Positions 24,297 through 42,049 of a stretch of DNA of 63,348 nt are shown here, one piece after another (the stretch's first letter is position 1; the number at the start of each line of letters is the position of its first letter). The notes beneath the pieces are model-generated. The model saw only the letters and a list, made by a program, of their open reading frames with translations. It was not told the DNA's origin and made no database searches. The stretch spans positions 1 to 63,348 of IMG/VR virus record IMGVR_UViG_3300042905_000928. One strand, 5' to 3'. Position numbers and translations under genes: made by a program. This stretch comes from a virus. Its lineage: Duplodnaviria; Caudoviricetes.

Positions 24297-24321
24297 TCAA
24301 CTGCTAGGAAAGGAAAATCAA
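24297..24321 (+). promoter_or_regulatory. conserved leader motif copy 1 (TCAACTGCTAG-GAAAGGAAAATCA)
   Basis: Immediately after the -10 box, covers the RBS; recurs at 30956 (+), 39775 (-), 40797 (-). Confidence 0.7.
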
Positions 24322-29488: not shown

Positions 29489-30262
29489 ATGAGCGAAAAC
29501 AACGAGAAACCAACGACTAAATCACCAACATTATTTGTAGCTACACCTATGTACGGTGGTATGTGCATTGGTAACTACGCCGCAGCTCTTATGCAGATGC
29601 CAATGATTGTAAGTAAAGCTGGTATTAAGATGTACTACACCTACATGATGAACGAGAGCCTGATTACCCGTGCCCGTAACAGTTTGGCTTATGATTTCTT
29701 GGCTTCAGATGCTACTCATTTGATGTTTATTGATGCTGACGTTGGGTTTCAACCTAATGACATCGTTGAGATGGTTAAGCGTGACGTGGATATTTGTTGT
29801 GGTTTGTACCCCAAGAAAGAAATTCATTGGCAACGAGTGGCTGATGCGGTAGGCAGAGGCGTGCCAGCTGACCAGTTAAAAGACCATACAGGTACATTCG
29901 TGGTGAACTTGGTTAAAGAAGAACGCCAAGAAGTAAAGATGAATGAATTATTAGAGATTCACAATGGTGGCACAGGCTTTATGTTGATCAAACGTGAAGT
30001 GTTTGAGGCTTTGGCTGATAAAGTGCCTGAATACAACAGTGATATGTATCTAGCCGTAGACACCGTAAGAACACCAAAAATTATTAAAGAATACTTTGCG
30101 ACCAGCATTGACCCTGAATCCAATAACCGCCTGCTATCTGAGGACTACCATTTCTGTAAGTTAGCGCGCAAGCATGGGTTCAAGGTGCATGCTGCGCCAT
30201 GGGTACAGTTATCTCACACTGGAACATACATCTTTAGCGGTGCTTTACAGCGTGTATCGTAA
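29489..30262 (+). CDS. GT-A-fold glycosyltransferase-like protein
   Basis: VATPMY, SLITRARN, LMFIDAD, GTGFMLIKREVF, LSEDYHFC. Confidence 0.75.
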   Translation: MSENNEKPTTKSPTLFVATPMYGGMCIGNYAAALMQMPMIVSKAGIKMYYTYMMNESLITRARNSLAYDFLASDATHLMFIDADVGFQPNDIVEMVKRDVDICCGLYPKKEIHWQRVADAVGRGVPADQLKDHTGTFVVNLVKEERQEVKMNELLEIHNGGTGFMLIKREVFEALADKVPEYNSDMYLAVDTVRTPKIIKEYFATSIDPESNNRLLSEDYHFCKLARKHGFKVHAAPWVQLSHTGTYIFSGALQRVS

Positions 30263-30539
30263 TAAGAAGCTATTGGAGGCTCTGCGTGAGTCTCCATGCC
30301 AACATTGTGGAAAACAAGATGGAACAATTGTTGCAGCGCACAGTAACCAGCTTAGAGATGGCAAAGGCCGTAGCATCAAGGCACATGACTACAGGACGGC
30401 AGCTCTATGCTACTGGTGTCACATGGAACTGGATCAGGGCAAAGACCTATCGAAAGCTGACAGGGAAGAGCTATGGGAAAACGCCCATCGTAAGACGGTA
30501 GGCTGGCTTTTTGAATCAGAAAAACTTACAATTAAATAA
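30252..30539 (+). CDS. HNH-like Zn-binding nuclease (DUF1364/DUF968-like)
   Basis: PCQHCG...AAH...ALCYWCH. Confidence 0.7.
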   Translation: MYRNKKLLEALRESPCQHCGKQDGTIVAAHSNQLRDGKGRSIKAHDYRTAALCYWCHMELDQGKDLSKADREELWENAHRKTVGWLFESEKLTIK

Positions 30540-30607
30540 AGCGAAAGCCAGCTTTACAAGCGAGACAAGGATTGCCCTTAAAGTGAGTTTGGCTGGCGAG
30601 TAGCTTT
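30538..30607 (+). ncRNA. structured hairpin with loop-E/sarcin-ricin internal loop
   Basis: AAAGC-GAAA-GCCAGCT ... GGCTGGC-GAGTA-GCTTT. Confidence 0.45.
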
Positions 30608-30627
30608 TTGCAAAAAAAATCGGCATT

Positions 30628-30643
30628 AAGTAAATATTTACTT
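30628..30643. promoter_or_regulatory. perfect 16-bp palindrome, candidate operator
   Basis: AAGTAAATATTTACTT, 15 bp upstream of the sRNA -35 box. Confidence 0.5.
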
Positions 30644-30658
30644 GACAAACACTATAGG

Positions 30659-30688
30659 TTGACAGGTGTTAAGAATTTCTGCTATATT
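30659..30688 (+). promoter_or_regulatory. sigma70 promoter of candidate sRNA
   Basis: TTGACA (30659-30664), 18 nt ending in extended TGc, TATATT (30683-30688). Confidence 0.75.
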
Positions 30689-30692
30689 TAGT

Positions 30693-30820
30693 GTATCAGT
30701 CCCCTTACTGATAGCCGTCAACCTGATTTTTCCGATTTAGCAGTTGGACTATCTTGACGGCAGCCCTCCAGGTGATCCCCTTCACCCTAAACCCCCAGCT
30801 AATCCCTGGGGGTTTTTCTT
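30693..30820 (+). ncRNA. candidate trans-acting antisense sRNA, four stem-loops
   Basis: Stems TATCAGT/ACTGATA, GCCGTCAA/TTGACGGC, GGTGA/TCACC and terminator AAACCCCCAG/CTGGGGGTTT; no ORF; loops complementary to phage leaders and RBSs. Confidence 0.75.
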
Positions 30821-30821
30821 T
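30789..30821 (+). terminator. intrinsic terminator of the sRNA
   Basis: 10-bp stem followed by U-rich tract. Confidence 0.8.
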
Positions 30822-30879
30822 GTGCCAATATGGTAAGAGCATGCCATGAATAATTTCCGTTAAAACGTACCTTTGTCAA

Positions 30880-30906
30880 TAACCTGAAATAGCTTATTTG
30901 AGGTTA
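30880..30906. promoter_or_regulatory. imperfect palindrome, candidate operator
   Basis: TAACCTGAAATA-GCT-TATTTGAGGTTA just upstream of the replication-operon -35. Confidence 0.45.
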
Positions 30907-30920
30907 CCTTTAAAAAGTTG

Positions 30921-30949
30921 TTGCAATTTATTTTTACTTCATTTAATCT
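30921..30949 (+). promoter_or_regulatory. sigma70 promoter of the replication operon
   Basis: TTGCAA, 17 nt, TAATCT; followed by GAGCCTCAACTGCTAG at the same spacing as the 24262 promoter. Confidence 0.7.
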
Positions 30950-30954
30950 AGAGC

Positions 30955-31356
30955 CTCAACTGCTAGAAGGAAAAATCAGGAACTGAAACAACTTCCTGAT
31001 GACAATTAGATTACCACCACGCCATTCATGGTGTGAGCTTGTGTCTCTTTGTCACTTTCTTTCTAGCATATGACGTACTCCACACGATAGCAAGAACCTA
31101 CATGGGTTGCGTGGAAGTAAACATAGGCTGATTTCATCACCCGATTTAGCCTCGTAGCCTTAAATGGGGACTACACAAGACGGAGAGCCAAGCGGTGAGA
31201 CCAACTCTCCATCGAATGAACATTAACTTAGGTAGGACTAGCAGTAACTGTGGAGTAGTGTATGGATTCGGAGAGTGTTATATGTGGGTCGGAGTGGTTA
31301 AGCACAACAGATGGTTGGCTTATCACCCTTGGGGGAACTATCAATTGGAGCAATGT
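30955..31356 (+). ncRNA. ~400-nt structured 5' leader / candidate RNA switch
   Basis: Helices 30961-30973/31056-31068, 30975-30982/30993-31000, 31076-31084/31249-31257, 31125-31131/31146-31152; alternative 30959-30966/31238-31245. Confidence 0.6.
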
Positions 31357-31656
31357 ATGAAAAACAAAGAACTTACAGACATAATCCTTGAAGCCATTAC
31401 GGAGCATGGATGTGTCACAACAACACAGATTGCAGACCTTCTCAAAGTTAATTCAGCCACCGCAGCAGGGCGGTTGACTTACCTTAGATCACAGGGTCGC
31501 ATTGTGGGCAAAAGAGCTAATTGGGCATTTAGATTGGAAGATCTAAAGGTCAAGCCCAAACAGCATATCGTTAATCAATCATTCACTGAACTATCAAATA
31601 TCTTTTACAACATAGTTCGCATGGGAGCTACAAATGAAAAAAATCAACATTCTTAA
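31357..31656 (+). CDS. winged-helix DNA-binding protein
   Basis: GGAG RBS; TTTQIADLLKVNSATAAGRLTYLRSQGRI HTH. Confidence 0.65.
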   Translation: MKNKELTDIILEAITEHGCVTTTQIADLLKVNSATAAGRLTYLRSQGRIVGKRANWAFRLEDLKVKPKQHIVNQSFTELSNIFYNIVRMGATNEKNQHS

Positions 31657-32479
31657 TATCCGCATTGATGGTGGCACACAGCCACGTCAAGAAATTGACT
31701 ACGATGTAGTGAAAGACTACGCAGAACTCATGCGTGATGGCGTGACATTTCCACCAGTCACCGTTTACTTTGATGGCGCAGAGTATTGGCTTGCAGACGG
31801 TTTCCACCGCTACCATGCCACTAAATCCAACGCTACAGCCACCATTGAAGCAGAAGTAATCACTGGTTCAATAGATGATGCTGAAGAGTATTCATTCACA
31901 GCCAACGGGGGTCGTGGTAACGATCTTACGAGAGAAGACAAGAAAGCCATCATCAGAAGAATGTTCCTGAAGAAAGAACGTTACGGAGACTGGTCACAGG
32001 AACGTATTGCCAAGCATGTCCATGTGTCACCCATGTTCGTCAGCCGAGTCAAGGCAGCCATGGAAATCAAAGATGAGCCAAAGGTCAAGAAGTTCATCAA
32101 AGATGGCGTAGAGAAAGAGATGAATGTCTCCAATATTGGTAAAAAAGCCAAGAATCAACCTACTAAACCTACTAAACCTGAAGTAGAACCGTATGACGAA
32201 AGCGAAGACAAAATCCGTGAGCTATCTGAGGTCATCACCCAGTTAGACGAGGAAGTAACGCTTCTGAAGGACAAGATAGCCATTGGTCAATGGGATGCCT
32301 CAGAAATTGAGAAGATTGACGTGGAAGAAACCCTTGTGGACTTGCGTGAACGAATCAGACTACTGGAAATTGACAACAAAGCATTGCGTGAGAGCAGAGA
32401 TATGTTCCAAAACCGTAACGCAGAGCTGATGAAAACAGTCACTTATTTACAAAGAAAGCTTAAAAAGGAAACAGCATGA
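31634..32479 (+). CDS. ParB/Srx N-terminal domain protein with HTH and coiled coil
   Basis: TQPR...FPPV...LADGFHRY; SQERIAKHVHVS HTH. Confidence 0.8.
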   Translation: MKKINILNIRIDGGTQPRQEIDYDVVKDYAELMRDGVTFPPVTVYFDGAEYWLADGFHRYHATKSNATATIEAEVITGSIDDAEEYSFTANGGRGNDLTREDKKAIIRRMFLKKERYGDWSQERIAKHVHVSPMFVSRVKAAMEIKDEPKVKKFIKDGVEKEMNVSNIGKKAKNQPTKPTKPEVEPYDESEDKIRELSEVITQLDEEVTLLKDKIAIGQWDASEIEKIDVEETLVDLRERIRLLEIDNKALRESRDMFQNRNAELMKTVTYLQRKLKKETA

Positions 32480-32640
32480 TGGATTACTCATTAATAATGA
32501 TTAAGATGCAAATTGGTTTAAAGGATTTGCACGATGCTATTAACTCCAAGGACTGGATGGAAATTGACATTCAAGCAGATAACCTTGCTTTCTTGGCAAA
32601 ACAAATGCGTGACTCAGTTGCCGACATCCAGACTAAATAA
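32476..32640 (+). CDS. hypothetical protein (54 aa)
   Basis: AAGGA RBS, coupled on both sides. Confidence 0.55.
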   Translation: MMDYSLIMIKMQIGLKDLHDAINSKDWMEIDIQADNLAFLAKQMRDSVADIQTK

Positions 32641-34115
32641 TGGAATTACACCTACGAGAACACCAACAAGAGGTCATAGAATCTCTCAGGGAAGGCTTCC
32701 GTCAAGGGCATAGGTCGCAGTTGTTATACGCACCAACAGGGTTCGGCAAGACCGAGGTAGCCATAGCCCTGATGAAAGCTACAGGCGAGAAGTTTAAACG
32801 CGCAGCCATGGTATTGGATCGCATTGTTTTGGTAGACCAAACCAGTCTTCGCTTGGATAAATACAGACTGAAGCATGGCGTATTCCAAGCTAACCACTGG
32901 CGGTATGACAAGCGAGAACGCCTACAGGTATGTTCAGCCCAAACCTTAGAACGCAGGGATGACTTTCCAGAGATGGACTTGTTAATCGTTGATGAGTGCC
33001 ACATTGCTCGTAAGCAGACATCCGAGTTCATTAAGGATAACCCCAACATCCGTGTTGTTGGCTTGACTGCTACCCCCTTCACCAAAGGACTAGGCGATCT
33101 GTATACCAATGTTGTATGCGGTTCAACCACTGAATCCTTGGTAGATGAGAAGTGGCTTGCTCCCCTGAAGGTATTCATTGCCAAAGAGATTGACATGACT
33201 GGGGCGAAGAAGTTAGCTGGTGAGTGGTCACAGGATGTGGTCACAGAGCGAGGTATGAGGTTAACAGGCGATATAGTATCTGAGTGGATCAAGAAGACTC
33301 ACGATGTATTTGGGAAACCACGCAAGACCATTGTCTTCTGTGCGGGCGTAGCCCATGGAGCAGACTTGGTTCAGCAGTTCGCAGACCATGGCTATAACTT
33401 TGTATCCATCAGCTACAAGGATGATGATGAGTTCAAAAAGGCAGCCATTGAGGACTTTGCGAAGCCAGACACCCAAATCCATGGACTGATAGCCACCGAC
33501 ATCCTCACAAGGGGTTTTGACGTATCAGATGTCATGATTGGGGTATCAGCAAGACCGTTTAGCAAATCACTGTCATCCCATGTGCAACAAATGGGGCGAG
33601 TCATGCGCCAACATCCTGAAAAGGAGTTCGCTTTATGGTTAGATCACAGTGGAAATTACCTACGCTTTCAAGATGATTGGGATGAGCTATACGAAAATGG
33701 CGTTAAATCCCTCACAAATGAAGGCGAAAAAGCCAAAAGAGAGCCAACAGAGAAGAAAAAGAAAGAATCCAAGTGTCCAGTATGCCAACATTTATGGCCA
33801 AAAAGCTCAGATACTTGCCCTAGTTGCGGTCATGTTAGACAGAAACGCAACGAAATATCCGCAGTATCAGGTCATTTAGAGGAGCTAGTCGCTGGAGCAA
33901 AGATCCGCAAGGATGATAAGCAAGACTTCTACTCACAGTTGGTATTCATTGCAAGGGATAAAGCATACAACCCCCACTGGGCAAGTCACAAGTATCGTGA
34001 GAAATTTGGCGTATGGCCAAGGGGATTGGTAGAAGTTCCTGCCCCACCGACAATGACAACCCTCAAGTGGATAAAATCACGCAACATCAAATGGTCAAAA
34101 GGTAAGAATAAATGA
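32640..34115 (+). CDS. SF2 DExH helicase (RadD/YejH-like) with Zn finger
   Basis: APTGFGKT, VDECH, GLTATP, QQMGRVMR, CxxC..CxxC. Confidence 0.9.
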   Translation: MELHLREHQQEVIESLREGFRQGHRSQLLYAPTGFGKTEVAIALMKATGEKFKRAAMVLDRIVLVDQTSLRLDKYRLKHGVFQANHWRYDKRERLQVCSAQTLERRDDFPEMDLLIVDECHIARKQTSEFIKDNPNIRVVGLTATPFTKGLGDLYTNVVCGSTTESLVDEKWLAPLKVFIAKEIDMTGAKKLAGEWSQDVVTERGMRLTGDIVSEWIKKTHDVFGKPRKTIVFCAGVAHGADLVQQFADHGYNFVSISYKDDDEFKKAAIEDFAKPDTQIHGLIATDILTRGFDVSDVMIGVSARPFSKSLSSHVQQMGRVMRQHPEKEFALWLDHSGNYLRFQDDWDELYENGVKSLTNEGEKAKREPTEKKKKESKCPVCQHLWPKSSDTCPSCGHVRQKRNEISAVSGHLEELVAGAKIRKDDKQDFYSQLVFIARDKAYNPHWASHKYREKFGVWPRGLVEVPAPPTMTTLKWIKSRNIKWSKGKNK

Positions 34116-34942
34116 GATTTGAAGATTTTGCCAAAATCCATGGACTGATCCTACGGGAAGTTACCCCCTTCAAATGGATGGCAACACCAACAGAAGACCA
34201 TCCAAACAAACGCAATGGGCGATACAAGTTCATGGGTGATATAGGATGGGTGCAAAACTGGGCAACCATGGACAAACCAGCCATGTGGAAGACAGAAGAT
34301 CGAAATGCGCTCAATCCAGAGCTGCTGCGACAAAAATCCAATTTTGAGGATGAAAGAGCAAAACTAGCAAAAAACGCTCAATCCAAGGCAGAGTGGATAA
34401 TTTCTCAATCCACCCTTCAAACGCATGAATATCTTGCCAAAAAAGGCTTTCCAGACGAAGAATCCATGGTATGGAATACTGATAAGGGCGACAAGTTAAT
34501 GGTCATACCTATGCGTAAAGGCGGAGAATTGGTAGGGTGTCAGTTGATCAATGAGCAAGGGGAAAAGAAGTTCTTGTATGGTCAGCAGACTAAAGGGGCA
34601 TCCTTCAGGATCGGTGCAAAAGGCATCCCTATACTTTGCGAAGGTCTTGCCACTGGATTGTCGGTCAGGTCGGTAATGCAAGCGAATAAACTCGATTGTG
34701 CTATCTACATTTGCTTTTCCGCAAGCAATGTTCAAGAAGTAAGTCGGCACATCCTCGGTGGGTTCATCATTGCTGATAATGATCCCAACGGAGTCGGAGA
34801 ATCCACTGCTCAAAAAACAGGTAAGCCATATTGGATTTCCGACACAGTTGGAGAAGATTTTAATGACTACCACATAAGAGTAGGCACTTTTAGGGCTAGT
34901 CAATCAATTAAGCCGTTAACTTATAAAAATAAGATTGAGTGA
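34112..34942 (+). CDS. Toprim DNA primase-like protein
   Basis: YLAKKG, CEGLATG, ADND, GEDFNDY. Confidence 0.8.
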   Translation: MRFEDFAKIHGLILREVTPFKWMATPTEDHPNKRNGRYKFMGDIGWVQNWATMDKPAMWKTEDRNALNPELLRQKSNFEDERAKLAKNAQSKAEWIISQSTLQTHEYLAKKGFPDEESMVWNTDKGDKLMVIPMRKGGELVGCQLINEQGEKKFLYGQQTKGASFRIGAKGIPILCEGLATGLSVRSVMQANKLDCAIYICFSASNVQEVSRHILGGFIIADNDPNGVGESTAQKTGKPYWISDTVGEDFNDYHIRVGTFRASQSIKPLTYKNKIE

Positions 34943-35189
34943 TTAGTCGCATAAACTTGGCTTCTATCTCCCTTACTCTTTGTTTTGATAAGCCATACAG
35001 TGATCCACAGCCCTTCAGTGTTTTACCCTTGGCTCTTTCAGACATAATATGCCAGTATTTCTCTCGCAATTCCATCTTTGTGTAGTTGTTATACAGTTGG
35101 CAGAAGTCAGCCATGGAAGGGAAGTCTATAAACACATACCCCCCTTCCGTATAAATTGGCACTTTGCCATTACCCAGTCTTAAATTCAT
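34908..35189 (-). CDS. sigma70 region-4-like HTH protein
   Basis: KTLKGCGSLYGLSKQRVREIEAK; start after AAGGGA. Confidence 0.6.
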   Translation of the reverse strand: MNLRLGNGKVPIYTEGGYVFIDFPSMADFCQLYNNYTKMELREKYWHIMSERAKGKTLKGCGSLYGLSKQRVREIEAKFMRLITQSYFYKLTA

Positions 35190-35190
35190 G

Positions 35191-35364
35191 TCAGTCCCTT
35201 GGATCAATTTCACAAACATCAACAATATCCCAATCATCCTCATAGGTGGCTTCTTCAGAATTAAGATAATCCATAGCCATATCACAGGCTTCATCTGCAT
35301 CACTGGCATCTACAACCACCACTTTGGTGGCAGTTGTAGTCAGTTTAACTTCGTATCTTCTCAT
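35191..35364 (-). CDS. small acidic protein (MRRYEVKL..., 57 aa)
   Basis: GAGGT RBS; below ORF-track cutoff; paralogue pattern V.A.D..EA...A. Confidence 0.6.
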   Translation of the reverse strand: MRRYEVKLTTTATKVVVVDASDADEACDMAMDYLNSEEATYEDDWDIVDVCEIDPRD

Positions 35365-35546
35365 GTTGTTACCTCTTTAACATCAGTTAACCCATCTTCT
35401 GCCCAAACAATGTCTTTTGAGTCGTAGTCTTCTTCGTTGTATCTATCAGATGCAATCTCTTCTGCAATCCCTTCATGCTCTGCTTCAACATCAAAGTAAT
35501 AGACAGTCGTTTCTGTTCTTGGTATACCCACTTTAAACTTCTTCAT
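35361..35546 (-). CDS. small acidic protein, same paralogue family
   Basis: MKKFKV...FDVEAEHEGIAEEIA. Confidence 0.6.
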   Translation of the reverse strand: MKKFKVGIPRTETTVYYFDVEAEHEGIAEEIASDRYNEEDYDSKDIVWAEDGLTDVKEVTT

Positions 35547-35733
35547 TGATACCATCCTTTTCCAGTTGGCTAGCAATGCCATTCAGAAGAATCTGCACAG
35601 CCATGTAAACAAACAAGGCAGATTTACCACGATCTTTAGCTAGGTCATCAACCCTAGCCATGGCAGTTTCAATATCATCAGGCACAAAGAAGATTCCTGA
35701 TTTCATTTTCAATAGTTGTTCAGTTGTTGTCAT
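35533..35733 (-). CDS. hypothetical protein
   Basis: AAGGGGA RBS at 35739-35745. Confidence 0.6.
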   Translation of the reverse strand: MTTTEQLLKMKSGIFFVPDDIETAMARVDDLAKDRGKSALFVYMAVQILLNGIASQLEKDGINEEV

Positions 35734-35881
35734 TTTCTTCCCCTTCCATTTCATCTAAGTAGCACTGTCTTGCTTCTTTATGGAAAGTAACAATAATGTT
35801 ACCTTTACGATCCCATGAAATTACCCAGTCAGCATGACCAAATACCTCTTCGCAATACTCGTCTAGTAAATCGCTATTCAT
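35720..35881 (-). CDS. hypothetical acidic protein (53 aa)
   Basis: Fills gap with overlapping start/stop. Confidence 0.5.
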   Translation of the reverse strand: MNSDLLDEYCEEVFGHADWVISWDRKGNIIVTFHKEARQCYLDEMEGEENDNN

Positions 35882-36168
35882 TCTGAAGCCCATCCAAAAA
35901 ATAAATACTCATCATCTTTAATATGGATGCAACCCGCATCCCCCCATTTGTCATCCACCCTTGAGTCGCAGTCATCAATCAGTTGTTCGGCATACACAAA
36001 GGCATCCAGTCCTTCAGCCAATGGAATGACCACAAAAGAGTTCTTCTCAGCGATAGTCCCAGTGTAGCCACCATGCCCATGCTGATACCTAGCTTCGTAA
36101 ACTAAACTATCAAAGGCTTTCTTGGCAGTCGAACCCAGTCCCACAGTCATAAACACTACTGCTCCCAT
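35878..36168 (-). CDS. hypothetical protein (GHGGYTGTIAEK family)
   Basis: GAGGAG RBS; DKWGDAGCI and FFGWAS motifs. Confidence 0.65.
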   Translation of the reverse strand: MGAVVFMTVGLGSTAKKAFDSLVYEARYQHGHGGYTGTIAEKNSFVVIPLAEGLDAFVYAEQLIDDCDSRVDDKWGDAGCIHIKDDEYLFFGWASE

Positions 36169-36713
36169 TATTCGCACTCCTCATCTGATTCATATTGCAT
36201 AGATATATCCATCTGATCATCAATGTATCTAGGTATGTTCTCTTGCACCCACGCTGAAGTGCATTGCTCAATGTCGTAATACTCTTCTTCGCCATCTATC
36301 CATGCACCACAGAAAGCCATGCCTGATTCGTAGTAATAACCCTTCACTTTGAAGCCAAGGTCAGCCAATACCGCATATGCTTGAGTTGGTGGACTCCAAG
36401 CAGAATCAAAGTAAACAAACATATCTTTCTCGCCACCTTGTGCATGATTATCTCTAGCAGAATCGTAGCCAATGTCCCATTTAGTCCCCCAGTTCTGCAC
36501 TCGCCAGTCCCACCAAGCAGTTTCAGGATCTACTGGATTCTCATTACCCCTAATATGCGGAAAAGTAGGCTTCACTTCCACAGTTTTGTAATCAGGCTCA
36601 GGCACAAGAGTCCCCAAGAATTTGCCTGATTCCCAAGCATCCTTGGCTTTCTTAATCATTTCAGGATCATCATGAGTTAAATACAAGTTGTTATCGCACC
36701 AGTTAGGCATCAT
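36168..36713 (-). CDS. DUF1281/YubB ferredoxin-like domain protein
   Basis: MPNWCDN, WWDWRVQNWGTKWD, FDSAWSPP, YYESGMAFCG. Confidence 0.75.
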   Translation of the reverse strand: MMPNWCDNNLYLTHDDPEMIKKAKDAWESGKFLGTLVPEPDYKTVEVKPTFPHIRGNENPVDPETAWWDWRVQNWGTKWDIGYDSARDNHAQGGEKDMFVYFDSAWSPPTQAYAVLADLGFKVKGYYYESGMAFCGAWIDGEEEYYDIEQCTSAWVQENIPRYIDDQMDISMQYESDEECE

Positions 36714-36859
36714 TCATTCTCCTTAAGTTTATAAATATTAAATACAGATACATCTTGAAAACGCACACAATCATTGAGATACTGGATTAGTGCATCAACC
36801 GCTTCTTCTTCATTCTCCACTTCCAATTCATCTTTAAAAGTAATTTCAAACTTCGGCAT
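36710..36859 (-). CDS. small acidic protein
   Basis: MPKFEITF...EVENEEEA. Confidence 0.55.
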   Translation of the reverse strand: MPKFEITFKDELEVENEEEAVDALIQYLNDCVRFQDVSVFNIYKLKENE

Positions 36860-37043
36860 CTTGATCCACCTTTGCGTATGTTCCAGTAATGTTAGATTCA
36901 AATAGATATAAGTCATCTGCATGAATTCCTTCAAAATGTCTTGTTTCTGCAATATGATGTGCTTCCTCACTATCTTTGGCTTCCATCTCATATGTGTAAA
37001 CCCATTGCTGAGTTTCATGTATTTCAACAGTGAAATTAGGCAT
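36846..37043 (-). CDS. small acidic protein, same paralogue family
   Basis: MPNFTVEIHE...MEAKDSEEAHHIA. Confidence 0.6.
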   Translation of the reverse strand: MPNFTVEIHETQQWVYTYEMEAKDSEEAHHIAETRHFEGIHADDLYLFESNITGTYAKVDQDAEV

Positions 37044-37326
37044 TTTCATTCTCCATAAACTCCAAAACATCAGTCCTAAAGGTATCCAGTGGATAATCCT
37101 CATTGATGATGTCAGTCAATAGATCAAGAAAATCATCTGTAGACATATTGTCGCTACCCAACCAACCTTCAACCATGGTTTTGCTTATGAGTTTCTTCCC
37201 AGTTGCCAAGTAGTAATCTGCTTCCTCTTCAGTTGCAAAGGTATGCAGTATTTCATCCCCATTGACATTGCTATGCCATATGTCCCATTGATCTTCACTT
37301 CTTTGTGATTTATATGTTGTTGCCAT
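37036..37326 (-). CDS. hypothetical acidic protein
   Basis: GAGGAG RBS. Confidence 0.6.
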   Translation of the reverse strand: MATTYKSQRSEDQWDIWHSNVNGDEILHTFATEEEADYYLATGKKLISKTMVEGWLGSDNMSTDDFLDLLTDIINEDYPLDTFRTDVLEFMENENA

Positions 37327-37328
37327 GA

Positions 37329-37496
37329 TTACTCCTCAAATTCGTTAATGTCGTAGAACACTATTCCCCAGTGTTCACCTTTTTCTATTAAATCGGACTG
37401 TTCCATTTCCCTAGCAATTTCTTCTGCTTGTTCAATCGAGTCAGCATCAATCAATACTCTTGTTTCAGTTGAAAAACTGGCAGTAAAACTAGGCAT
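37329..37496 (-). CDS. small acidic protein, same paralogue family
   Basis: MPSF...IDADSIEQAEEIA. Confidence 0.6.
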   Translation of the reverse strand: MPSFTASFSTETRVLIDADSIEQAEEIAREMEQSDLIEKGEHWGIVFYDINEFEE

Positions 37497-37653
37497 TTTC
37501 ATTCTCCTCAATTTGTTTAATTTTCTCTTCTGTTTCTGCTCTTGTAGGGAACATTAGGTAATCTCCAACCTCATCTATGTATTCATCAGCACCATTTGAG
37601 TCCAAGATAATCCAATAGTCCGCTACTATTTCTACTGCTTTCCATTTAGGCAT
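37489..37653 (-). CDS. hypothetical acidic protein
   Basis: AAGGGGA RBS at 37659-37665. Confidence 0.6.
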   Translation of the reverse strand: MPKWKAVEIVADYWIILDSNGADEYIDEVGDYLMFPTRAETEEKIKQIEENENA

Positions 37654-37876
37654 CTTCATCCCCTTCAATATCAACAATCACAAAGCCATCATCTAGGATC
37701 AAACCTACTTCCAACGGCTCTCCATCCATGTAGAAGAAAATGTTTCTATCTTCGTCATCTTCCACTTCATCCCAAGAATCCAATGCAATATCCACCCAAG
37801 TAAAATCCACCTTACTGGCATTTATATAGTCAGGCATATAAAACCCTCGGCAGTGTTTAGTATTGTATTTATTCAT
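37646..37876 (-). CDS. hypothetical acidic protein
   Basis: AAGGGG RBS at 37883-37888. Confidence 0.6.
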   Translation of the reverse strand: MNKYNTKHCRGFYMPDYINASKVDFTWVDIALDSWDEVEDDEDRNIFFYMDGEPLEVGLILDDGFVIVDIEGDEDA

Positions 37877-37886
37877 GTCATACCCC

Positions 37887-38189
37887 TTATTCAAAGTCTT
37901 TACCAACAAACACATTATTTTTACGGAGCAAGGCAATCGCATGGTCGTTTAATGACATTACTCCATCATATTCAACCAGTGTGCGACTGCCCACCTTGTC
38001 AAACTCAAACCAAAGCCCAATGCTTTCAAACAAGTCAGCACTGGGTATATCCCATTCAATAAACCCAGTGTTGTCCTTGCGGAAGTAAAGCTCCAGTGTT
38101 GACTCATGCTCACCTAAGTCCCTAGCACCCCAAGAACCCTCAAGGAATAGCTCAGATTTGACAGTCATAGAATCAATGAGTTCAGCCAT
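37887..38189 (-). CDS. hypothetical protein
   Basis: IGLWF...LVEYDGV motif; tightly packed operon. Confidence 0.6.
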   Translation of the reverse strand: MAELIDSMTVKSELFLEGSWGARDLGEHESTLELYFRKDNTGFIEWDIPSADLFESIGLWFEFDKVGSRTLVEYDGVMSLNDHAIALLRKNNVFVGKDFE

Positions 38190-38191
38190 AA

Positions 38192-38527
38192 TCAATACTC
38201 AGAAGTAAGCATCAATACATTGTCAGTCAGGAAGAATTCATACTCCCCTTCAGGGCAGTCAGTGAAGTCAATATGCTTTGTTTTGATCACATTGCAATCG
38301 CCATCTTCCACAGTGATTGTGGCTTTACCATCAGCCACCACCATCTTGATTGACAGGAAGTAGTCAACCTCTTGCAGTTCAAAGAATTCAGTCGCAACAA
38401 TATCCAAAAACCAGTAGGCACTGGCTTCACGACAGAAGTATTCCACCCCATCCGTATGCACCAGTTTTGGCACAAACATATTGGATTTATAGTATTGCTC
38501 AGTCCCAGTAAATTGATTCAATTCCAT
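38192..38527 (-). CDS. DUF6876-like protein
   Basis: LNQFTGTEQYY, TDGV, AYWFLD, IDFTDCP, LMLTSEY; AAGGGGA RBS. Confidence 0.7.
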   Translation of the reverse strand: MELNQFTGTEQYYKSNMFVPKLVHTDGVEYFCREASAYWFLDIVATEFFELQEVDYFLSIKMVVADGKATITVEDGDCNVIKTKHIDFTDCPEGEYEFFLTDNVLMLTSEY

Positions 38528-38528
38528 G

Positions 38529-38738
38529 TTATTCCCCTTGCATAAGTTCGTTATAAAAAGACCATGTAGAGCTAATACAGTCCCCACAGGCATTAAACAC
38601 ATCTACCACTACTCCATCATCATCCATCTTGATATTGATATAACCACCCGCCTTACCATCCTTATCTACCATGATGGCAAGAGAGTCGTTATCCAATTCA
38701 GCGACAGATAAGTCAAACCCCTTAATATTCGTTTTCAT
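38529..38738 (-). CDS. hypothetical protein
   Basis: GAGGT RBS; DDGVVVDVF. Confidence 0.6.
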   Translation of the reverse strand: MKTNIKGFDLSVAELDNDSLAIMVDKDGKAGGYINIKMDDDGVVVDVFNACGDCISSTWSFYNELMQGE

Positions 38739-38740
38739 AA

Positions 38741-39010
38741 TTACCTCAACACTGGCAAAACAGATTTCTCAGGATGCGAAGTAAACAACGCACCACCATC
38801 ATTGCCTTCATCATCCATGGATGCGAACAACCAAATACCAGTTTCCAACATGAAAGCAACAGGTCTTGAAGTCCAGTCCATGTCCTCTGCTTCTCTATGG
38901 CTTACATAGCGAACCCTAGTTATCTTCTTGCCAAGCAATATGCTACTGGCTTCAGAAGTCCAGTAATCCTCAATCTCCAATTCATTCATCTTTGATAGTT
39001 CAGCAGTCAT
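38741..39010 (-). CDS. hypothetical protein (DDEGNDGGAL family)
   Basis: AAGGGGA RBS at 39016-39022. Confidence 0.65.
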   Translation of the reverse strand: MTAELSKMNELEIEDYWTSEASSILLGKKITRVRYVSHREAEDMDWTSRPVAFMLETGIWLFASMDDEGNDGGALFTSHPEKSVLPVLR

Positions 39011-39566
39011 TTGTTTCCCCTTTTGTAACAGTAAATTCTCTTTCTTTCCATTTAGTGATGCGACATAGCACGCCATTGGTGGCTCTGAAAGCATCCCTAC
39101 CCAAGTAGGACTCATAAGTAAAAGTATCCTCTGAGAAGCTCCCAAAGCTCATTGCGGTGGCAAACTTGACCACATCCCCCATGATCAGTTTTGCCGATTT
39201 CTTCTTCTCTGATTTCTTGCGACAGGCTTCTCTCCAGACCCTTGCATGGTTATTAAATGGTGGAAAGAGAGCATCCAGTTTATCTAGCAGTTTCTTAGGT
39301 GCATCATAGTAATAAGGATGAGCAGTTTCACCCATCTCTTTGTAGTAAAGCCAATCATCCTCTTTGCGAGTCAGGATAATCATGGCTTCTGCTAAGATAA
39401 TCCCAGTTGTCTTATCTTGCACCTTGTGGATGCCATACGCAGTAGTCCCACGCATTGATACATCCGTTAATTCCCACTTGTGAGTATCAGACTCACTTGT
39501 GAATTCACGCACCAACCAGTCTTTAGTCGGCAGTGAGTCAAACTTTTGCGAACCAGTCCATCCCAT
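39000..39566 (-). CDS. DUF6927-like protein
   Basis: MGWT, YKEMGETAHPYYYDAP, WREAC; AAGGGGA RBS. Confidence 0.7.
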   Translation of the reverse strand: MGWTGSQKFDSLPTKDWLVREFTSESDTHKWELTDVSMRGTTAYGIHKVQDKTTGIILAEAMIILTRKEDDWLYYKEMGETAHPYYYDAPKKLLDKLDALFPPFNNHARVWREACRKKSEKKKSAKLIMGDVVKFATAMSFGSFSEDTFTYESYLGRDAFRATNGVLCRITKWKEREFTVTKGETNDC

Positions 39567-39576
39567 GTTATTCCCC

Positions 39577-39765
39577 TTAATGAGTTAAGTTAGCGTAATG
39601 CACGCCATGTTCAGCACATACCTTGACGAAGAAATCATCCTTCTTCAACGCACCAGTCATAGCGGATGCAATCTCTCTTGCAGTCCGATAAGGCATGGCG
39701 TTTTCTAAATGCACCCTAGCGATTGCTTTAGGCACAGGCTTTGAATTGATATACCACTGAATCAT
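39577..39765 (-). CDS. hypothetical protein
   Basis: AGGAG RBS preceded by the leader motif. Confidence 0.6.
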   Translation of the reverse strand: MIQWYINSKPVPKAIARVHLENAMPYRTAREIASAMTGALKKDDFFVKVCAEHGVHYANLTH

Positions 39766-39774
39766 TTGTATCTC

Positions 39775-39785
39775 CTAGCAGTTGA
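39775..39785 (-). promoter_or_regulatory. conserved leader motif copy 3 (TCAACTGCTAG)
   Basis: Starts 5 nt 3' of the hammerhead cut site and overlaps the RBS. Confidence 0.7.
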
Positions 39786-39877
39786 CTAAGACTGGATGCA
39801 ATTTGCGGACTCATGCCAACAGGCAATTTGCGGACTCATGCACCCAGTTTCGGGGATTCACCCCTCATCAGTTAGTC
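39784..39877 (-). ncRNA. type I hammerhead ribozyme
   Basis: GACUAA-CUGAUGA-GGGG/CCCC-GAAA-CUGGGUGCA/UGCAUCCAG-UC-UUAGUC; GUC cut after 39790. Confidence 0.9.
39798..39841. repeat. 19-bp direct repeat, two copies
   Basis: GCAATTTGCGGACTCATGC at 39798-39816 and 39823-39841. Confidence 0.95.
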
Positions 39878-40039
39878 TTTTTCTAGCTCGCAGTGCATGA
39901 AGAACATAAAGCAAAGACCAACAGTGGATGCAATCAAAGTAAAGATATACAGTGGTGCGGGATTCTCTGATACAACATAGATAGAGAGCATAAACAGACC
40001 AAAGATACCAAGGTTTAAAAAGTAAGCTAAGTGTTTCAT
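39872..40039 (-). CDS. small 2-TM membrane protein
   Basis: Two hydrophobic helices; AAGGGGA RBS at 40045-40051. Confidence 0.6.
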   Translation of the reverse strand: MKHLAYFLNLGIFGLFMLSIYVVSENPAPLYIFTLIASTVGLCFMFFMHCELEKD

Positions 40040-40049
40040 CATCATCCCC

Positions 40050-40325
40050 TTAAAAAGTTTTAACCCAAATGCGATTAGCATCAGCGAAGTCGTAGATTGT
40101 GTCTAGCAGATAGTCAGCATCTTCAATGTAGTCAGTCCATGCGAGTTCATCTACTGCATCTTCAAAGTTGCTGAAGTAAATGTAGTCAGCAGTTTTAGGA
40201 TTAGCATCAATGAATGATTTAAACGCTTGGTGCAAACAGGTAAGCATTTCATGACCATCAATATCGTCATTCTCATACTTGGCATATAGGTCAGCCAAGT
40301 CAATCTCATGTTTCCAGTTAGCCAT
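40050..40325 (-). CDS. hypothetical acidic protein (IYDFADANRIWV family)
   Basis: GGGAG RBS. Confidence 0.65.
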   Translation of the reverse strand: MANWKHEIDLADLYAKYENDDIDGHEMLTCLHQAFKSFIDANPKTADYIYFSNFEDAVDELAWTDYIEDADYLLDTIYDFADANRIWVKTF

Positions 40326-40327
40326 GA

Positions 40328-40519
40328 TTATTTCTCCCAGTTAGCAAGCATGAATTCAATCTCTCTGAATTGTGCTTCTGATAAGTTGATGTAATTAGTC
40401 TTACCTAATGCGGATTTGATTTGCATACGGATTTGGAAGGTATCGCCCAGTGACTCAATGACGGCATCAGTTGGCAACACTTTCCAAAACTGGTTACAGA
40501 TATAAGTTTCTTGATTCAT
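40328..40519 (-). CDS. hypothetical protein
   Basis: AAGGGGA RBS at 40525-40531. Confidence 0.6.
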   Translation of the reverse strand: MNQETYICNQFWKVLPTDAVIESLGDTFQIRMQIKSALGKTNYINLSEAQFREIEFMLANWEK

Positions 40520-40536
40520 AAGTTTCCCCTTTATTT

Positions 40537-40587
40537 GTCAATGACCCATCACTGGGTTTCGGCTATTGAAGCCATCATCAGATTGAC
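40537..40587 (-). ncRNA. type I hammerhead ribozyme
   Basis: GUCAAU-CUGAUGA-U-GGCU/AGCC-GAAA-CCCA(GUGA)UGGG-UC-AUUGAC; GUC cut after 40543. Confidence 0.9.
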
Positions 40588-40787
40588 TGAGTAAAACGCA
40601 CCTTTATATCTATTAGGTTTTGAATGTTATCTAATGCTTTAGGTAGATCAAACTTTGCTTCAGATAACAATTCCAATATATCCCCATCTAACCAGTATTC
40701 ATTAACTACATCCCAGTGTTGTCTTTCTCTAGCAATCATACGGACTGCACCGATTAACATCATTTCGTCAGCATCTTTTGTAGTCAT
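40578..40787 (-). CDS. hypothetical protein, first gene of leftward operon
   Basis: TAGGGGA RBS preceded by leader-motif variant. Confidence 0.6.
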   Translation of the reverse strand: MTTKDADEMMLIGAVRMIARERQHWDVVNEYWLDGDILELLSEAKFDLPKALDNIQNLIDIKVRFTQSI

Positions 40788-40788
40788 C

Positions 40789-40807
40789 TTTTTCCCCTAA
40801 CAGTTGA
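40789..40807 (-). promoter_or_regulatory. conserved leader motif copy 4 (TCAACTGTTAG-GGGAAAAA)
   Basis: One C>T change relative to the other copies; covers the RBS. Confidence 0.6.
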
Positions 40808-40841
40808 TTGATATTTACATATAACAGGTGATACAGACTTC

Positions 40842-40871
40842 ATTTTCAATAAATAGCTATTGACTTGTCAA
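40842..40871 (-). promoter_or_regulatory. probable promoter of the leftward operon
   Basis: TTGACA (40871-40866), 18 nt, GAAAAT; AT-rich upstream; -10 imperfect. Confidence 0.45.
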
Positions 40872-41149
40872 CACCTTTTTACAATTATTTTTCACTCTAT
40901 ATAGAATAAGGCTTCCAAGGCATTTGATACAGCTGAGAAAGGGCTTGCTTGTGGATCAGTGGGCATAAAAACACAAAGCATGGCTCTAAAACGCACTCTA
41001 ACGCTTGTTAGAGTAGCGAAGCGGAACAGTGTATTGGGTAATAACATAGAGAGAGATACGCCAATAGACCAATAGACAGACACCAGTTGCACATAGTCCT
41101 AATCTTGTCCTATTATCAGGCACTACTAAGAAATCCTCTATATATACCT

Positions 41150-42049
41150 ATGACCAAACTAACACGCAAACAAATACAGGATGGACTCAAGGCAATGCCT
41201 ATGGATACGCTATTACTGGGTGCGAGTAGTAAGACAACAAGGCTTACCCCAAAACAGATTAAGTTCGCAGAGGAAATCGCGAAGGGAGAGTCAAAGGCTC
41301 AGGCTTACAGGAAGTCTTATAACTCCACTGGCAAACCACATACCCAGTCACGCAATGGGCAGAAGCTACTAAAGAATGACGCAATACAAACCCAAGTGGA
41401 TGCCTTCAAGGTGGCTATTGAAGCGAGTAAATATACAACCCCTGCTCACTTGAGGATGCACATAATCCATAAGTTGACTCAAAAGACACTGGATGATGAA
41501 GTCCCTCACGCACAACAGTTGAAGGCACTGGAGTTGCTGGGCAAGATAACAGAGGTATCACTGTTCACGCACAGGACTGAGGTCATCAAGACGGATAACA
41601 GTGAGTCAATGAAGGAGAAGCTAATCAAGTCATTGGCACTGGCTATGAATTCTACTGGCGGGAAAAAGATTCCTGAGTATTCTGCGGAGTCATTGTTGGC
41701 AGAGCTAACTGGCGAAGCACCAGTTGATGATGTTGTCACTAACTTTAATGTCACAGATGTTAGTGTGATGGATGTAGAAGCACATGATGATGGTGGCACT
41801 GGGTTATCCGATTGCGATTCTGCGTCACCCACTACACCGCCACCCCTAAAATTTGAGGATTCGCACTCTGGCCCATTGCATAGTAATCCGCACACTCAAT
41901 CACCAACTTTTGAGAATTCCCTTCCAAATCAATCACCTGGCACTCTAACAAATGTTAGAGTGGGGGAGGGGGTATCAAAAATTGATCCAGACGAGGACAA
42001 TGTTTCTACAGAAACACCCCCCGTCACTAATTGGGTAGAAAAGGCATAG
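41150..42049 (+). CDS. terminase small subunit-like protein with long disordered tail
   Basis: LTPKQIKFAEEIAKGESKAQAYRKSY HTH, ALELLGK; upstream of terL. Confidence 0.7.
   Translation: MTKLTRKQIQDGLKAMPMDTLLLGASSKTTRLTPKQIKFAEEIAKGESKAQAYRKSYNSTGKPHTQSRNGQKLLKNDAIQTQVDAFKVAIEASKYTTPAHLRMHIIHKLTQKTLDDEVPHAQQLKALELLGKITEVSLFTHRTEVIKTDNSESMKEKLIKSLALAMNSTGGKKIPEYSAESLLAELTGEAPVDDVVTNFNVTDVSVMDVEAHDDGGTGLSDCDSASPTTPPPLKFEDSHSGPLHSNPHTQSPTFENSLPNQSPGTLTNVRVGEGVSKIDPDEDNVSTETPPVTNWVEKA

Follow-up and report, generated by a model that had tools for sequence, protein, structure and literature searches.

A predicted small RNA conserved among uncultured phages carries loops and a core complementary to translation starts of phage genes

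The genome of a lake-water phage (63,348 bp; the whole stretch of DNA analysed, hereafter the window) encodes a small RNA that belongs to an uncatalogued family common to related uncultured phages. Its two UCCCCUU hairpin loops exactly complement the commonest ribosome-site heptamer of the leftward genes, and its invariant core is complementary to a leader box ahead of certain phage genes. From sequence, we tentatively suggest that the RNA regulates phage translation starts in trans by antisense pairing, with C-rich loops that are specific to the lineage, a reading that we judge plausible, if slightly more apt to be wrong than right. The RNA would cover the regions where translation of the phage's mRNAs begins, in two ways: (i) the core, (CU)CCUAGCAG, displayed in a loop, would form ~10-13 bp with a box, CUGCUAGG(AG), lying across the ribosome sites of three genes: 40787 (the first leftward one), 39765 and the exonuclease gene 24322; and (ii) the fast-changing C-rich loops, both UCCCCUU here, would add 7-bp pairing to the AAGGGGA sites of nine or ten small leftward genes. 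By competing with the 30S subunit, bound RNA would reduce translation of the leftward block. If this holds, one RNA may turn off many leftward small genes, a view that related phages back only in part.

The gene, its promoter, terminator and fold, its conservation, the exact complementarities, the enrichments and the motif positions reported here were all computed. The small-RNA gene lies between two rightward replication and recombination modules and comprises the following elements:

30659..30688, plus strand: small-RNA promoter of sigma70 type (TTGACA, 18-nt spacer, TG-TATATT)
30689..30821, plus strand: small RNA of ~128-133 nt
30700..30706, plus strand: loop 1, UCCCCUU, a predicted hairpin loop (opening cost 1.3 kcal/mol)
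30736..30746, plus strand: core UUUAGCAGUUG (opening cost 7.6 kcal/mol in the window phage)
30764..30769, plus strand: linker CCCUCC, an anti-Shine-Dalgarno (anti-SD) mimic, predicted unpaired (opening cost 0.02 kcal/mol)
30776..30782, plus strand: loop 3, UCCCCUU, a predicted hairpin loop (opening cost 2.2 kcal/mol)
30789..30821, plus strand: intrinsic terminator with U tract (10-bp covarying stem, 6 of its pairs G-C, followed by a T run)

The promoter scores 11/12 with an extended -10 TG, and its -35 and -10 elements are kept in the alignment of relatives; as the consensus scan overall returned 17 sites vs 25.7 in shuffles, only the score and conservation of this particular site count. The -10 position suggests a transcript start near 30693-30696, and host RNA polymerase presumably drives transcription of the phage genome. 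The predicted fold (MFE -48.2 kcal/mol, z -6.45) was matched in stability by 0/200 shuffles, and the RNA is single-copy in the window. Rfam 15 yielded no family match for the small RNA and none at gathering score anywhere in the window, and a search of the region 30000-41300 with E up to 1 gave no relevant match to it. By every in-silico criterion the gene looks real, and the RNA is probably made.

Homologues occupy the matching place in related uncultured phages: of 80 loci retrieved via the ParB-like neighbour gene, 21 have one, as do 27/27 loci retrieved with a core pattern. Across the family, 11 of the 16 consensus pairs show compensatory change on both sides, UAGCAG is invariant in 18/18 aligned members, and the linker GCAAGCCCNCG is kept in relatives. 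In relatives, another structured RNA (Rfam Betaproteobacteria-1) lies between the small RNA and the ParB-like gene.

Across the family the RNA keeps one invariant part, the core (CU)CCUAGCAG, which is complementary to the leader box CUGCUAGG(AG) before selected phage genes; in the window, the core UUUAGCAGUUG faces CAACUGCUAGG boxes. The initial annotation did not mention this pairing. The boxes and associated elements are as follows:

40842..40871, minus strand: TTGACA-18-GAAAAT, a candidate promoter for the leftward operon (10/12, consensus match only)
40796..40806, minus strand: leader box CAACUGUUAGG; it overlaps the UAGGGGA site of the gene starting at 40787, the first one leftward
39774..39784, minus strand: leader box CAACUGCUAGG, directly 3' of a hammerhead-like element and overlapping the AGGAGA site of gene 39765
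24298..24308, plus strand: leader box CAACUGCUAGG, 7 nt past a TTGACA-17-TAATAT promoter and preceding the exonuclease gene (GTG 24322)
30957..30966, plus strand: box-like CAACUGCUAG, following a TTGCAA-17-TAATCT promoter-like site

Worked by hand with G-U pairs allowed, the CAACUGUUAGG box forms 11 bp with the core. The region of the box at 24298..24308 is linked by repeat D13 to 30944-30966; no intact gene follows the box-like CAACUGCUAG in the window phage, and an ATG-started ORF stands at the matching place in two relatives (L001 and L003). When 7-mers were profiled along the RNA without bias, antisense matches to translation-start windows outnumbered sense ones in 15/15 loci, with the peak at the core. 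Likewise, CTGCTAGG occurs 70 times in 308 kb vs 9.4 expected (16 of the 70 being the RNA genes themselves), and of the 25 words most enriched before starts, only its 7-mers are not SD words. A start codon follows 3-14 nt behind the box in 106 of 116 distinct boxes. Pairing between cognate RNA and box was not significantly longer than between non-cognate partners (11.5 vs 10.9 bp, greater in 14/21, Wilcoxon p = 0.09).

These positions bear on the idea that the RNA does not act in trans, being instead a leader with an attenuator or terminator for the downstream ParB-like, helicase and primase genes, or a protein decoy. The RNA is indeed upstream of and co-oriented with the downstream rightward genes and ends in a strong terminator, and the Betaproteobacteria-1 RNA of the relatives fits such an arrangement. 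However, another promoter-like site, with a box of its own, stands between the terminator and the next genes in the window, the same combination precedes the ParB-like gene in relatives, and the core complement recurs at translation starts on both genome strands, which a purely local leader fails to explain. We regard this explanation as very improbable, and continue with a trans-acting RNA.

The box at 39774..39784 directly follows a further structured element:

39784..39877, minus strand: hammerhead-like three-way junction of type I layout (CUGAUGA and GAA cores; helix I GACUAA/UUAGUC)

Read from 39877 to 39784, the sequence CUGAUGA ... GAA-A ... U-C supplies the hammerhead core nucleotides C3-U4-G5-A6-N7-G8-A9, G12-A13-A14, A15.1-U16.1 and H17. 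Its MFE structure is exactly the three-way junction with helix I open (z -2.74), helix III holds two exact 19-nt repeats, and the predicted cut falls after C39790. Helix I covaries between phages (GACUAA/UUAGUC, GAUUAA/UUAAUC, GGCAAA/UUUGUC). A scan across all sources returned 12 hits and 0 in controls, and the leader box CUGCUAGG lies within 10 nt downstream in 10 of these 12 hammerhead-like elements. The Rfam hammerhead models gave no match in the window, and in one relative (L030) RAGATH-1-hammerhead was found at sub-threshold level only (27.3 bits vs 56.3, E 1.7). We call the window element hammerhead-like, with self-cleavage predicted. It shares with phage intergenic hammerheads, which a published account describes as cutting long phage transcripts into gene-length mRNAs, the three-way junction with CUGAUGA and GAA cores between small genes (PMC3088659); it differs from them in the trailing leader box complementary to a conserved small RNA. 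Our literature search found no report linking hammerheads to a leader box of this kind.

The leftward genes, which the gene layout suggests to be early, carry the sites that match the loops:

35139..40799, minus strand: ten G-run ribosome sites, from sequence, start table and motif scan, as specified below
start+6 to start+12, minus strand: AAGGGGA for the genes starting at 40519, 40039, 39566, 39010, 38527, 37653 and 35733
37882-37888, minus strand: AAGGGGU, gene start 37876
40793-40799, minus strand: UAGGGGA, gene start 40787
35139-35146, minus strand: tenth G-run site, AAGGGGGG, ahead of GTG 35135

The initial annotation had named the first nine of these sites, put them at about 9 of 22 genes, located TCCCCTT at 30700-30706 and 30776-30782 in RNA loops, and set the leftward genes against late genes with AGGAG-type sites. 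All nine sites are present at the starts it gave, both TCCCCTT copies fall in predicted hairpin loops, and the six late genes (46945, 48393, 49032, 51289, 54715, 56286) have AAGGAG or TAGGAG; the leftward count becomes 23, and the tenth site is new. The loop complement is exact over 7 nt at 7 starts and over 6 nt at 2 further starts, and the spacing from AAGGGGA to ATG is constant at 5 nt. With a start table curated by hand, strict AGGGG[A/T]-N5-start occurs at 9/23 leftward vs 0/67 rightward starts (Fisher p = 1.2e-6), and any GGGG at -16..-4 at 10/23 vs 4/67 (p = 1.0e-4). The proposed tabulation of GGGG against GGAG by gene direction likewise yielded the anticipated leftward enrichment, the ratio of GGGG to GGAG/GAGG among strong sites being 10:9 leftward and 4:24 rightward (p = 0.0085). 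Scanning the window for AGGGGW-N5-ATG gave 10 matches vs 0.75 expected, a number reached in 0/100 shuffles; nine are leftward gene starts, and no gene starts at the tenth (25605-25618, minus strand).

Predicted loop-site duplexes range from -10.6 to -14.9 kcal/mol and, net of opening, from about -5 to -7.6. These net values are similar to the anti-SD duplex energies at the same sites (-6.4 to -9.9 kcal/mol), computed with the canonical anti-SD as a stand-in for that of the host. The median predicted RNA binding is -5.5 at leftward vs -3.2 at rightward starts (Mann-Whitney p = 2.7e-6). Against loop pairing in vivo, all seven positions of a 7-nt hairpin loop cannot easily pair. The proposal that shut-off would spare late genes is strengthened by the absence of the heptamer at rightward starts, but the accessible CCCUCC linker mimics the anti-SD and could bind GGAG sites, so that sparing is not guaranteed.

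Alternatively, AAGGGGA could be an ordinary SD variant unlinked to the RNA, with the C-rich loops acting elsewhere, for instance on host mRNAs, and with leftward concentration arising from a G-rich coding strand and from small genes duplicated or shuffled as units with their start regions. AAGGGG can bind the ribosomal anti-SD with a single G-U pair in the duplex and thus, as a ribosome site, needs no special explanation; the anti-SD duplex energies of the G-run sites are normal. Background GGGG outside ribosome sites is ~2.6x denser on the leftward coding strand (30 in 5,892 nt vs 75 in 57,203 nt), in line with the strong local GC skew (down to -0.27 at 36-38 kb). This excess is far below the positional enrichment of 9/23 vs 0/67. 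The start regions also repeat beyond the SD (repeat families D1, D3 and D17; e.g. AAGGGGAATAACATGG twice and a paralogous ATGCC(T/G)AA start family), and site uniformity may therefore stem partly from duplication or recombination. In lake metagenomes, natural variants skip whole gene cassettes of the leftward block (e.g. joint 36862 -> 37647), which fits this reading. What an ordinary SD explains less readily is that the exact complementary heptamer sits in two separate hairpin loops, where an unrelated RNA would match by chance at ~4^-7 per loop, and that loop 1 differs in the closest relatives. Moreover, orthologous genes swap GGGG, GGAG and box-type sites between phages, so that site flavour belongs to the phage lineage and is not inherited with the gene. 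On balance we consider an unlinked SD variant rather unlikely.

For antisense pairing by the loops, the comparison of lineages is divided. The nearest relatives, L001/L002, retain AAGGGGA sites and a CCCCUU loop (loop 3 of L001 is ACCCCUU). The close relatives L003, L113 and L134 share loop 3 UCCCCUU with the window phage and carry a different loop 1, ACCUCCAAGAUA, which indicates that UCCCCUU in loop 1 is derived in the window lineage. Loops vary across seven lineages and fit the local ribosome-site flavour in three: (i) the window phage with L001/L002, (ii) L003/L134, with an ACCUCCA loop and UGGAGGU sites, and (iii) L029/L074, with a UUCCCCC loop and GGGGG sites. Three others clash, as L005, L009 and L010 combine G-run sites with non-matching CCCACAC-type loops, a combination that also speaks for the ordinary SD variant. 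In most relatives, CCCACAC loops go with ordinary AGGAG sites. Loop-site covariation is not significant, and independent lineages are few. The suggested ribosome-site barcode finds support within the window genome and in L001/L002, with no such support for a general rule across relatives.

CCCACAC is the commonest loop, and its complementary site precedes no leftward start (0-1 hits per locus). The lack of a target in the phage loci examined would suit an RNA that is made but aimed mainly at host transcripts with G-rich ribosome sites, the phage match being incidental or secondary. The strong constitutive host-type promoter, which suggests expression from the first minute, is compatible with this, and phage-encoded SprX is described as targeting a host ribosome site with a C-rich loop (PMC4005690). 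Yet the invariant core has many phage targets. In addition, a search of the genomes of 185,579 species for the core pattern gave no copy, which speaks only against prophage carriage. We find a mainly host-directed RNA improbable and retain antisense action on phage starts as our working proposal.

Among known phage systems, P1/P7 c4 and P4 CI are RNAs that act in trans; several of their loops complement sites in the phage's own operon, one of these sites overlapping a ribosome site, and loop differences between relatives set their specificity. They belong to temperate phages and are cut out of the leader of their target operon. The window RNA differs on both counts: it comes with a promoter and a terminator of its own, ~10 kb away from the leftward promoter, and neither an integrase nor a repressor was found among 45 proteins scanned (many small proteins being without assignment), nor a prophage copy. 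T4 RegB is a protein endoribonuclease, aided by ribosomal protein S1, with the canonical SD as its tag, whereas the proposed agent here is an RNA and the tag a variant SD; the RegB family is absent among PHROG/Pfam matches of the same 45 proteins.

RNAIII, RsaE/RoxS and the alpha-proteobacterial CcsR RNAs are small RNAs that mask SD sequences with C-rich loops. Staphylococcus aureus SprX, carried by converting phages, is likewise reported to mask a ribosome site with a C-rich loop, blocking 30S loading, and to be able to single out one cistron within an operon (PMC4005690). The window RNA resembles this group in silico in its own promoter and terminator, its exposed C-rich motifs and the predicted pairing of C-rich hairpin loops with G-rich ribosome sites, and shows no sequence or structure homology to it (no Rfam match). 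Whereas those RNAs act on few host genes, here one loop would fit the site variant of about ten genes in the phage's own operon.

Ribosome sites were tabulated by gene direction, with hand-checked starts forming the main start table, backed by motif-centred scans, because automatic callers mis-picked or under-counted starts: calling by Shine-Dalgarno (SD) energy chose many internal starts, and a second automatic caller found just 6 of the 10 sites of the window itself. Every G-run site that the initial annotation had placed ahead of the leftward small genes is present, at the constant spacing AGGGG(A/T)-5 bases-ATG. The pattern AGGGGW-N5-ATG occurs 10 times in the window against 0.75 expected, a count reached by 0 of 100 shuffles, and 9 of these matches are leftward gene starts; AGGAGW-N5-ATG occurs 6 times. 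At hand-checked starts, the motif is found for 9/23 leftward vs 0/67 rightward genes (p = 1.2e-6), and any GGGG within the SD window for 10/23 vs 4/67, on a leftward coding strand that is G-rich and carries GGGG ~2.6 times more densely even outside ribosome sites. The six late genes that the annotation had set apart carry AAGGAG, TAGGAG or AAGG sites, as do other rightward genes. G-run sites crowd the promoter-proximal half of the leftward block (9 of the 12 first genes vs 2 of the 11 last). The enrichment of AAGGGGA sites is real and statistically strong.

The genome is a complete assembly in a single contig of 63,348 bp, encoding terminase, portal, capsid, tail-fibre, endolysin, exonuclease, an Erf-like annealing protein, helicase, primase and ParB-like proteins; in 45 scanned proteins there was no recognisable RNA polymerase, integrase or repressor. 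The leftward genes form a single block of 23 small ones between 40787 and ~34908, most of whose proteins lack a family match; every other gene runs rightward. From the gene layout and the promoter-like site ahead of the block, we infer that it is early. The features needed here are as follows.

11986-23790 (+), single ORF of 3,934 aa matching DarB-like antirestriction, endolysin-type/lysozyme and DNA methyltransferase families, probably encoding an ejected internal virion protein
30174-30539 (+), HNH endonuclease gene, directly upstream of the small RNA gene
30659-30688 (+), small RNA promoter, near-consensus, with extended -10
30789-30815 (+), small RNA terminator, strong
40871-40842 (-), promoter-like site of the leftward block, consensus match

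Comparison of 30000-42000 with 50,697 phage records by megablast gave no match, and no phage record is close at the DNA level; the portal shares at most ~46% identity with portals of Planktothrix, Synechococcus and Pelagibacter phages. Near-identical DNA was matched in 24 DNA runs from lake and freshwater metagenomes; there were no RNA runs among the sequencing runs matching the window. Contigs from four runs show natural variants with cassette-sized skips in the leftward block and, among the differences listed, one in the small RNA (C>T at 30766 within the CCCUCC linker, in a single run). Within 36700-37700 (-), paralogous small genes at 37653, 37496, 37043, 36859 and 36710 have ATGCC(T/G)AA starts and near-identical start regions; skips end near such starts, e.g. 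36862 to 37647 in run X7.

The small RNA, ~130 nt from promoter to terminator, folds far better than its shuffles (z -6.45) into a predicted series of 5', long central and small 3' hairpins followed by the terminator, and both UCCCCUU heptamers fall in hairpin loops of this fold, as had been proposed. Rfam contains no family matching it. Homologues occupy the matching place upstream of a ParB-like gene in 21 of 80 related IMG/VR loci, and occur in 27/27 loci that the core pattern retrieved. A few metagenome contigs contain them too: a pattern scan gave 34 stretches, of which 4 passed the promoter-and-terminator check (5 by nhmmer) and the remainder were dropped as chance. Promoter, 5' hairpin stem and terminator stem are conserved across the family, where 11 of 16 consensus pairs show compensatory changes, and the stem enclosing the core alternates between GCCGUC/GACGGC and GCAC/GUGC. 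Given promoter, terminator, fold, homologues and compensatory changes, we are confident on computational grounds that this is a genuine RNA gene; by sequence comparison it is a member of a new, conserved family. The count of its members is probably too low, because the nhmmer profile missed apparent diverged forms, with loop ACCUCCUAGCAG followed by a terminator, in three related loci (L004 ~4826, L007 ~8130, L034 ~8387 (-)). The genome contigs searched held no prophage copies. A leader or attenuator that does not act in trans seems very improbable. In its favour, the RNA lies upstream of the ParB-like gene and ends in a strong terminator; against it, a further promoter-like site with its own box follows the terminator ahead of the next genes, and complements of the core stand at translation starts on both strands of the genome.

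Comparison of window 30640-30830 with locus L001 8448-8640 shows a promoter (55 nt) 100% identical, a 3' part ~98% identical and a replaced 5' hairpin module, a mosaic that suggests module swapping between close relatives. Between small RNA and ParB-like gene, 8 of 9 relatives scanned carry the Rfam Betaproteobacteria-1 RNA (RF02932, 89-98 bits; L029 9572-9691; L002 8793-8917; L005 4733-4853; others). An Rfam scan did not find it in the window; its presence in relatives may hint at a betaproteobacterial host. Pairing of loop 1 with the CUGUGGGA loop of this neighbour was considered and rejected: judged by eye, the match holds in 11 loci, fails in 9 and is ambiguous in 2, and loop types of the two RNAs assort independently.

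Across the family, the small RNA varies most in its hairpin loops. Their sequence was compared with the flavour of the ribosome sites, lineage by lineage.

Loops and ribosome sites in the window and in loci of related phages
Window, L001 and L002: CCCCUU-type loops; AAGGGGA sites; fit
L003 and L134: ACCUCCA loop 1, also UCCCCUU loop 3; mostly UGGAGGU sites; fit
L029, L030, L074 group: UUCCCCC loops; GGGGG at several proximal genes; fit
L005: CCCACAC-type loops; G-run sites; no fit
L009: CCCACAC-type loops; G-run sites; no fit
L010: CUCACAC-type loops; G-run sites; no fit
Most remaining relatives: CCCACAC loops; ordinary AGGAG sites; neutral

In L002, 14 of 16 minus-strand AAGGGG stand ahead of starts, and a matrix of loops against starts gives cognate counts of 10 for the window, 14 for L002 and 10 for L003, with 0-5 for the ten other loci. 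Three fits and three misfits in about seven lineages provide no evidence of covariation. Orthologous genes carry GGGG in one phage and GGAGG or another site in the next, so that site flavour is a property of the lineage. In the window, loop 1 has come to share the sequence of loop 3, whereas the closest relatives retain a different loop 1. Because of this identity and the lineage-wise flips, the initial proposal of a barcode, by which UCCCCUU loops shut off early genes with AAGGGGA sites and spare late genes, is kept alive without being proven. The barcode is reasonable but unproven as a lineage-limited feature; late genes need not be strictly spared, since GGAG sites can be bound by the open CCCUCC linker.

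Predicted loop-site duplexes have energies between -10.6 and -14.9 kcal/mol; once opening costs are deducted, about -5 to -7.6 remains, within the range of anti-SD duplex values for the same sites, and predicted binding of the small RNA is stronger at leftward than at rightward starts. These values and the lineage-wise matches have to be weighed against a rival, an ordinary variant of the SD within a block that is G-rich and recombining, to which strand composition and cassette skips would correspond and which we regard as possible, if rather unlikely. Host transcripts as main targets are an improbable alternative. In its favour, the complement of the CCCACAC loops stands ahead of essentially no leftward start in the relatives' loci examined; against it, each RNA matches start regions in its own locus through another segment.

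This segment is the core, the sole invariant block of the small RNA outside the terminator (UAGCAG, usually (CU)CCUAGCAG). Its reverse complement, CUGCUAGG(AG), recurs as a box directly ahead of start codons, with 70 occurrences in 308 kb of non-redundant loci (16 being the RNA genes themselves) vs 9.4 expected. Box 7-mers are among the most enriched words ahead of starts, and a start codon lies 3-14 nt behind the box in 106 of 116 distinct boxes. When every 7-mer of each RNA was matched to start regions in the same locus, the peak was the core in all loci shown, and antisense exceeded sense matches in 15/15 loci. The box is not bound to particular genes. In the window it is found as follows.

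Ahead of the first leftward gene, 40787 (-), a G-U tolerant form overlapping the UAGGGGA site
Ahead of gene 39765 and ahead of the exonuclease gene, boxes
30957, a relic copy

Core and box would pair over ~10-13 bp, with the core partly buried in the predicted fold of the window RNA; swapped pairs are not significantly shorter than cognate ones, so a comparison of RNA and box flanks gave no significant sign of co-evolution. On this sequence evidence the leader box is the better-supported candidate target, ahead of the barcode sites. The box as start of a promoter for a phage single-subunit RNA polymerase was rejected: no such polymerase was found among the proteins scanned, the 3,934-aa protein matches other families, and the fixed distance from box to start codon also disfavours it. 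Two window boxes lie 7 nt past a sigma70-type -10 element. By rough patterns, a hammerhead-like core precedes 22 of the 116 boxes and a promoter-like site 11, with other hairpins ahead of the rest. Many boxes follow conserved paired non-hammerhead hairpins, e.g. AGNCNA...UGGUCUUGGGGGCUAAUGUUAGCC or AAUCCUGAUGCCC...GGGCAUUGGGAUUGCCAUU (L005 9920, L074 7198, L026 15247 and L010 10750, all (-)), which could be processing sites or another ribozyme class.

39877-39784 (-), hammerhead-like element, type I, with a box 6 nt past the predicted cut

At minimum free energy this element folds as the textbook three-way junction, with every core base present. The sources scanned contain the architecture 12 times, in the window and in L005, L008, L011, L029, L030, L051 and L074, whereas controls made by reversal or complementation have 0; all 12 elements lie in leftward blocks between small genes, 10 are followed by the CUGCUAGG box, and helix I covaries among them. 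None reaches the threshold of the Rfam hammerhead models, the best being a sub-threshold RAGATH-1-hammerhead in L030. Two exact 19-nt direct repeats (GCATGAGTCCGCAAATTGC) at 39798-39816 and 39823-39841 (-) lie within helix III and are also found in L011. Hammerheads flanking genes in phage transcripts are described, with function unknown, in PMC3088659, whose alignments might already include members of the present elements.

The simplest model covering all observations would be antisense masking, by the small RNA, of translation starts on mRNAs of the phage itself. A more elaborate version, which we consider improbable as a whole, is a modular RNA switch by which this lake-phage family controls its own genes: (i) hammerhead ribozymes and promoters would yield mRNAs starting with one standard leader box; (ii) the conserved small RNA would bear the invariant antisense to this box; (iii) exchangeable C-rich loop modules would be tuned to the flavour of the lineage (AAGGGGA here, UGGAGGU in L003, GGGGG in L029/L074); and (iv) the leftward block would undergo class-wide translational shut-off. 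Loop differences among close relatives might further confer specificity, a resident phage silencing the same genes of a co-infecting relative. Under such a switch, phage hammerheads would serve in regulation.

If the pairing is real, a phage would label a whole gene block by a variant ribosome site and one small RNA would read the label, which would join phage small RNAs, ribosome-site variation and hammerheads between phage genes, hitherto described apart, and make the function of intergenic phage hammerheads testable. If it is not, what remains is an unusual functional SD variant in a G-rich, recombining block beside an uncharacterised small RNA. The small RNA family and the leader box are common to many uncultured lake phages, and a result obtained here would therefore apply group-wide. 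Keyword searches of the open-access literature gave no description of the small RNA, the box or the link between box and hammerhead.

The small RNA has no homology-based membership in SprX-type, RegB or c4/CI systems. P1 c4 and P4 CI exemplify a phage-internal, multi-site antisense design, which that of the small RNA resembles. Its proposed action is similar to that of C-rich-loop sRNAs such as SprX, described as phage-borne in PMC4005690. The logic of shut-off resembles that of the T4 nuclease RegB, which is reported to inactivate early mRNAs via GGAG ribosome sites (PMC3014915), and the window system would be its RNA-based counterpart if the pairing is real.
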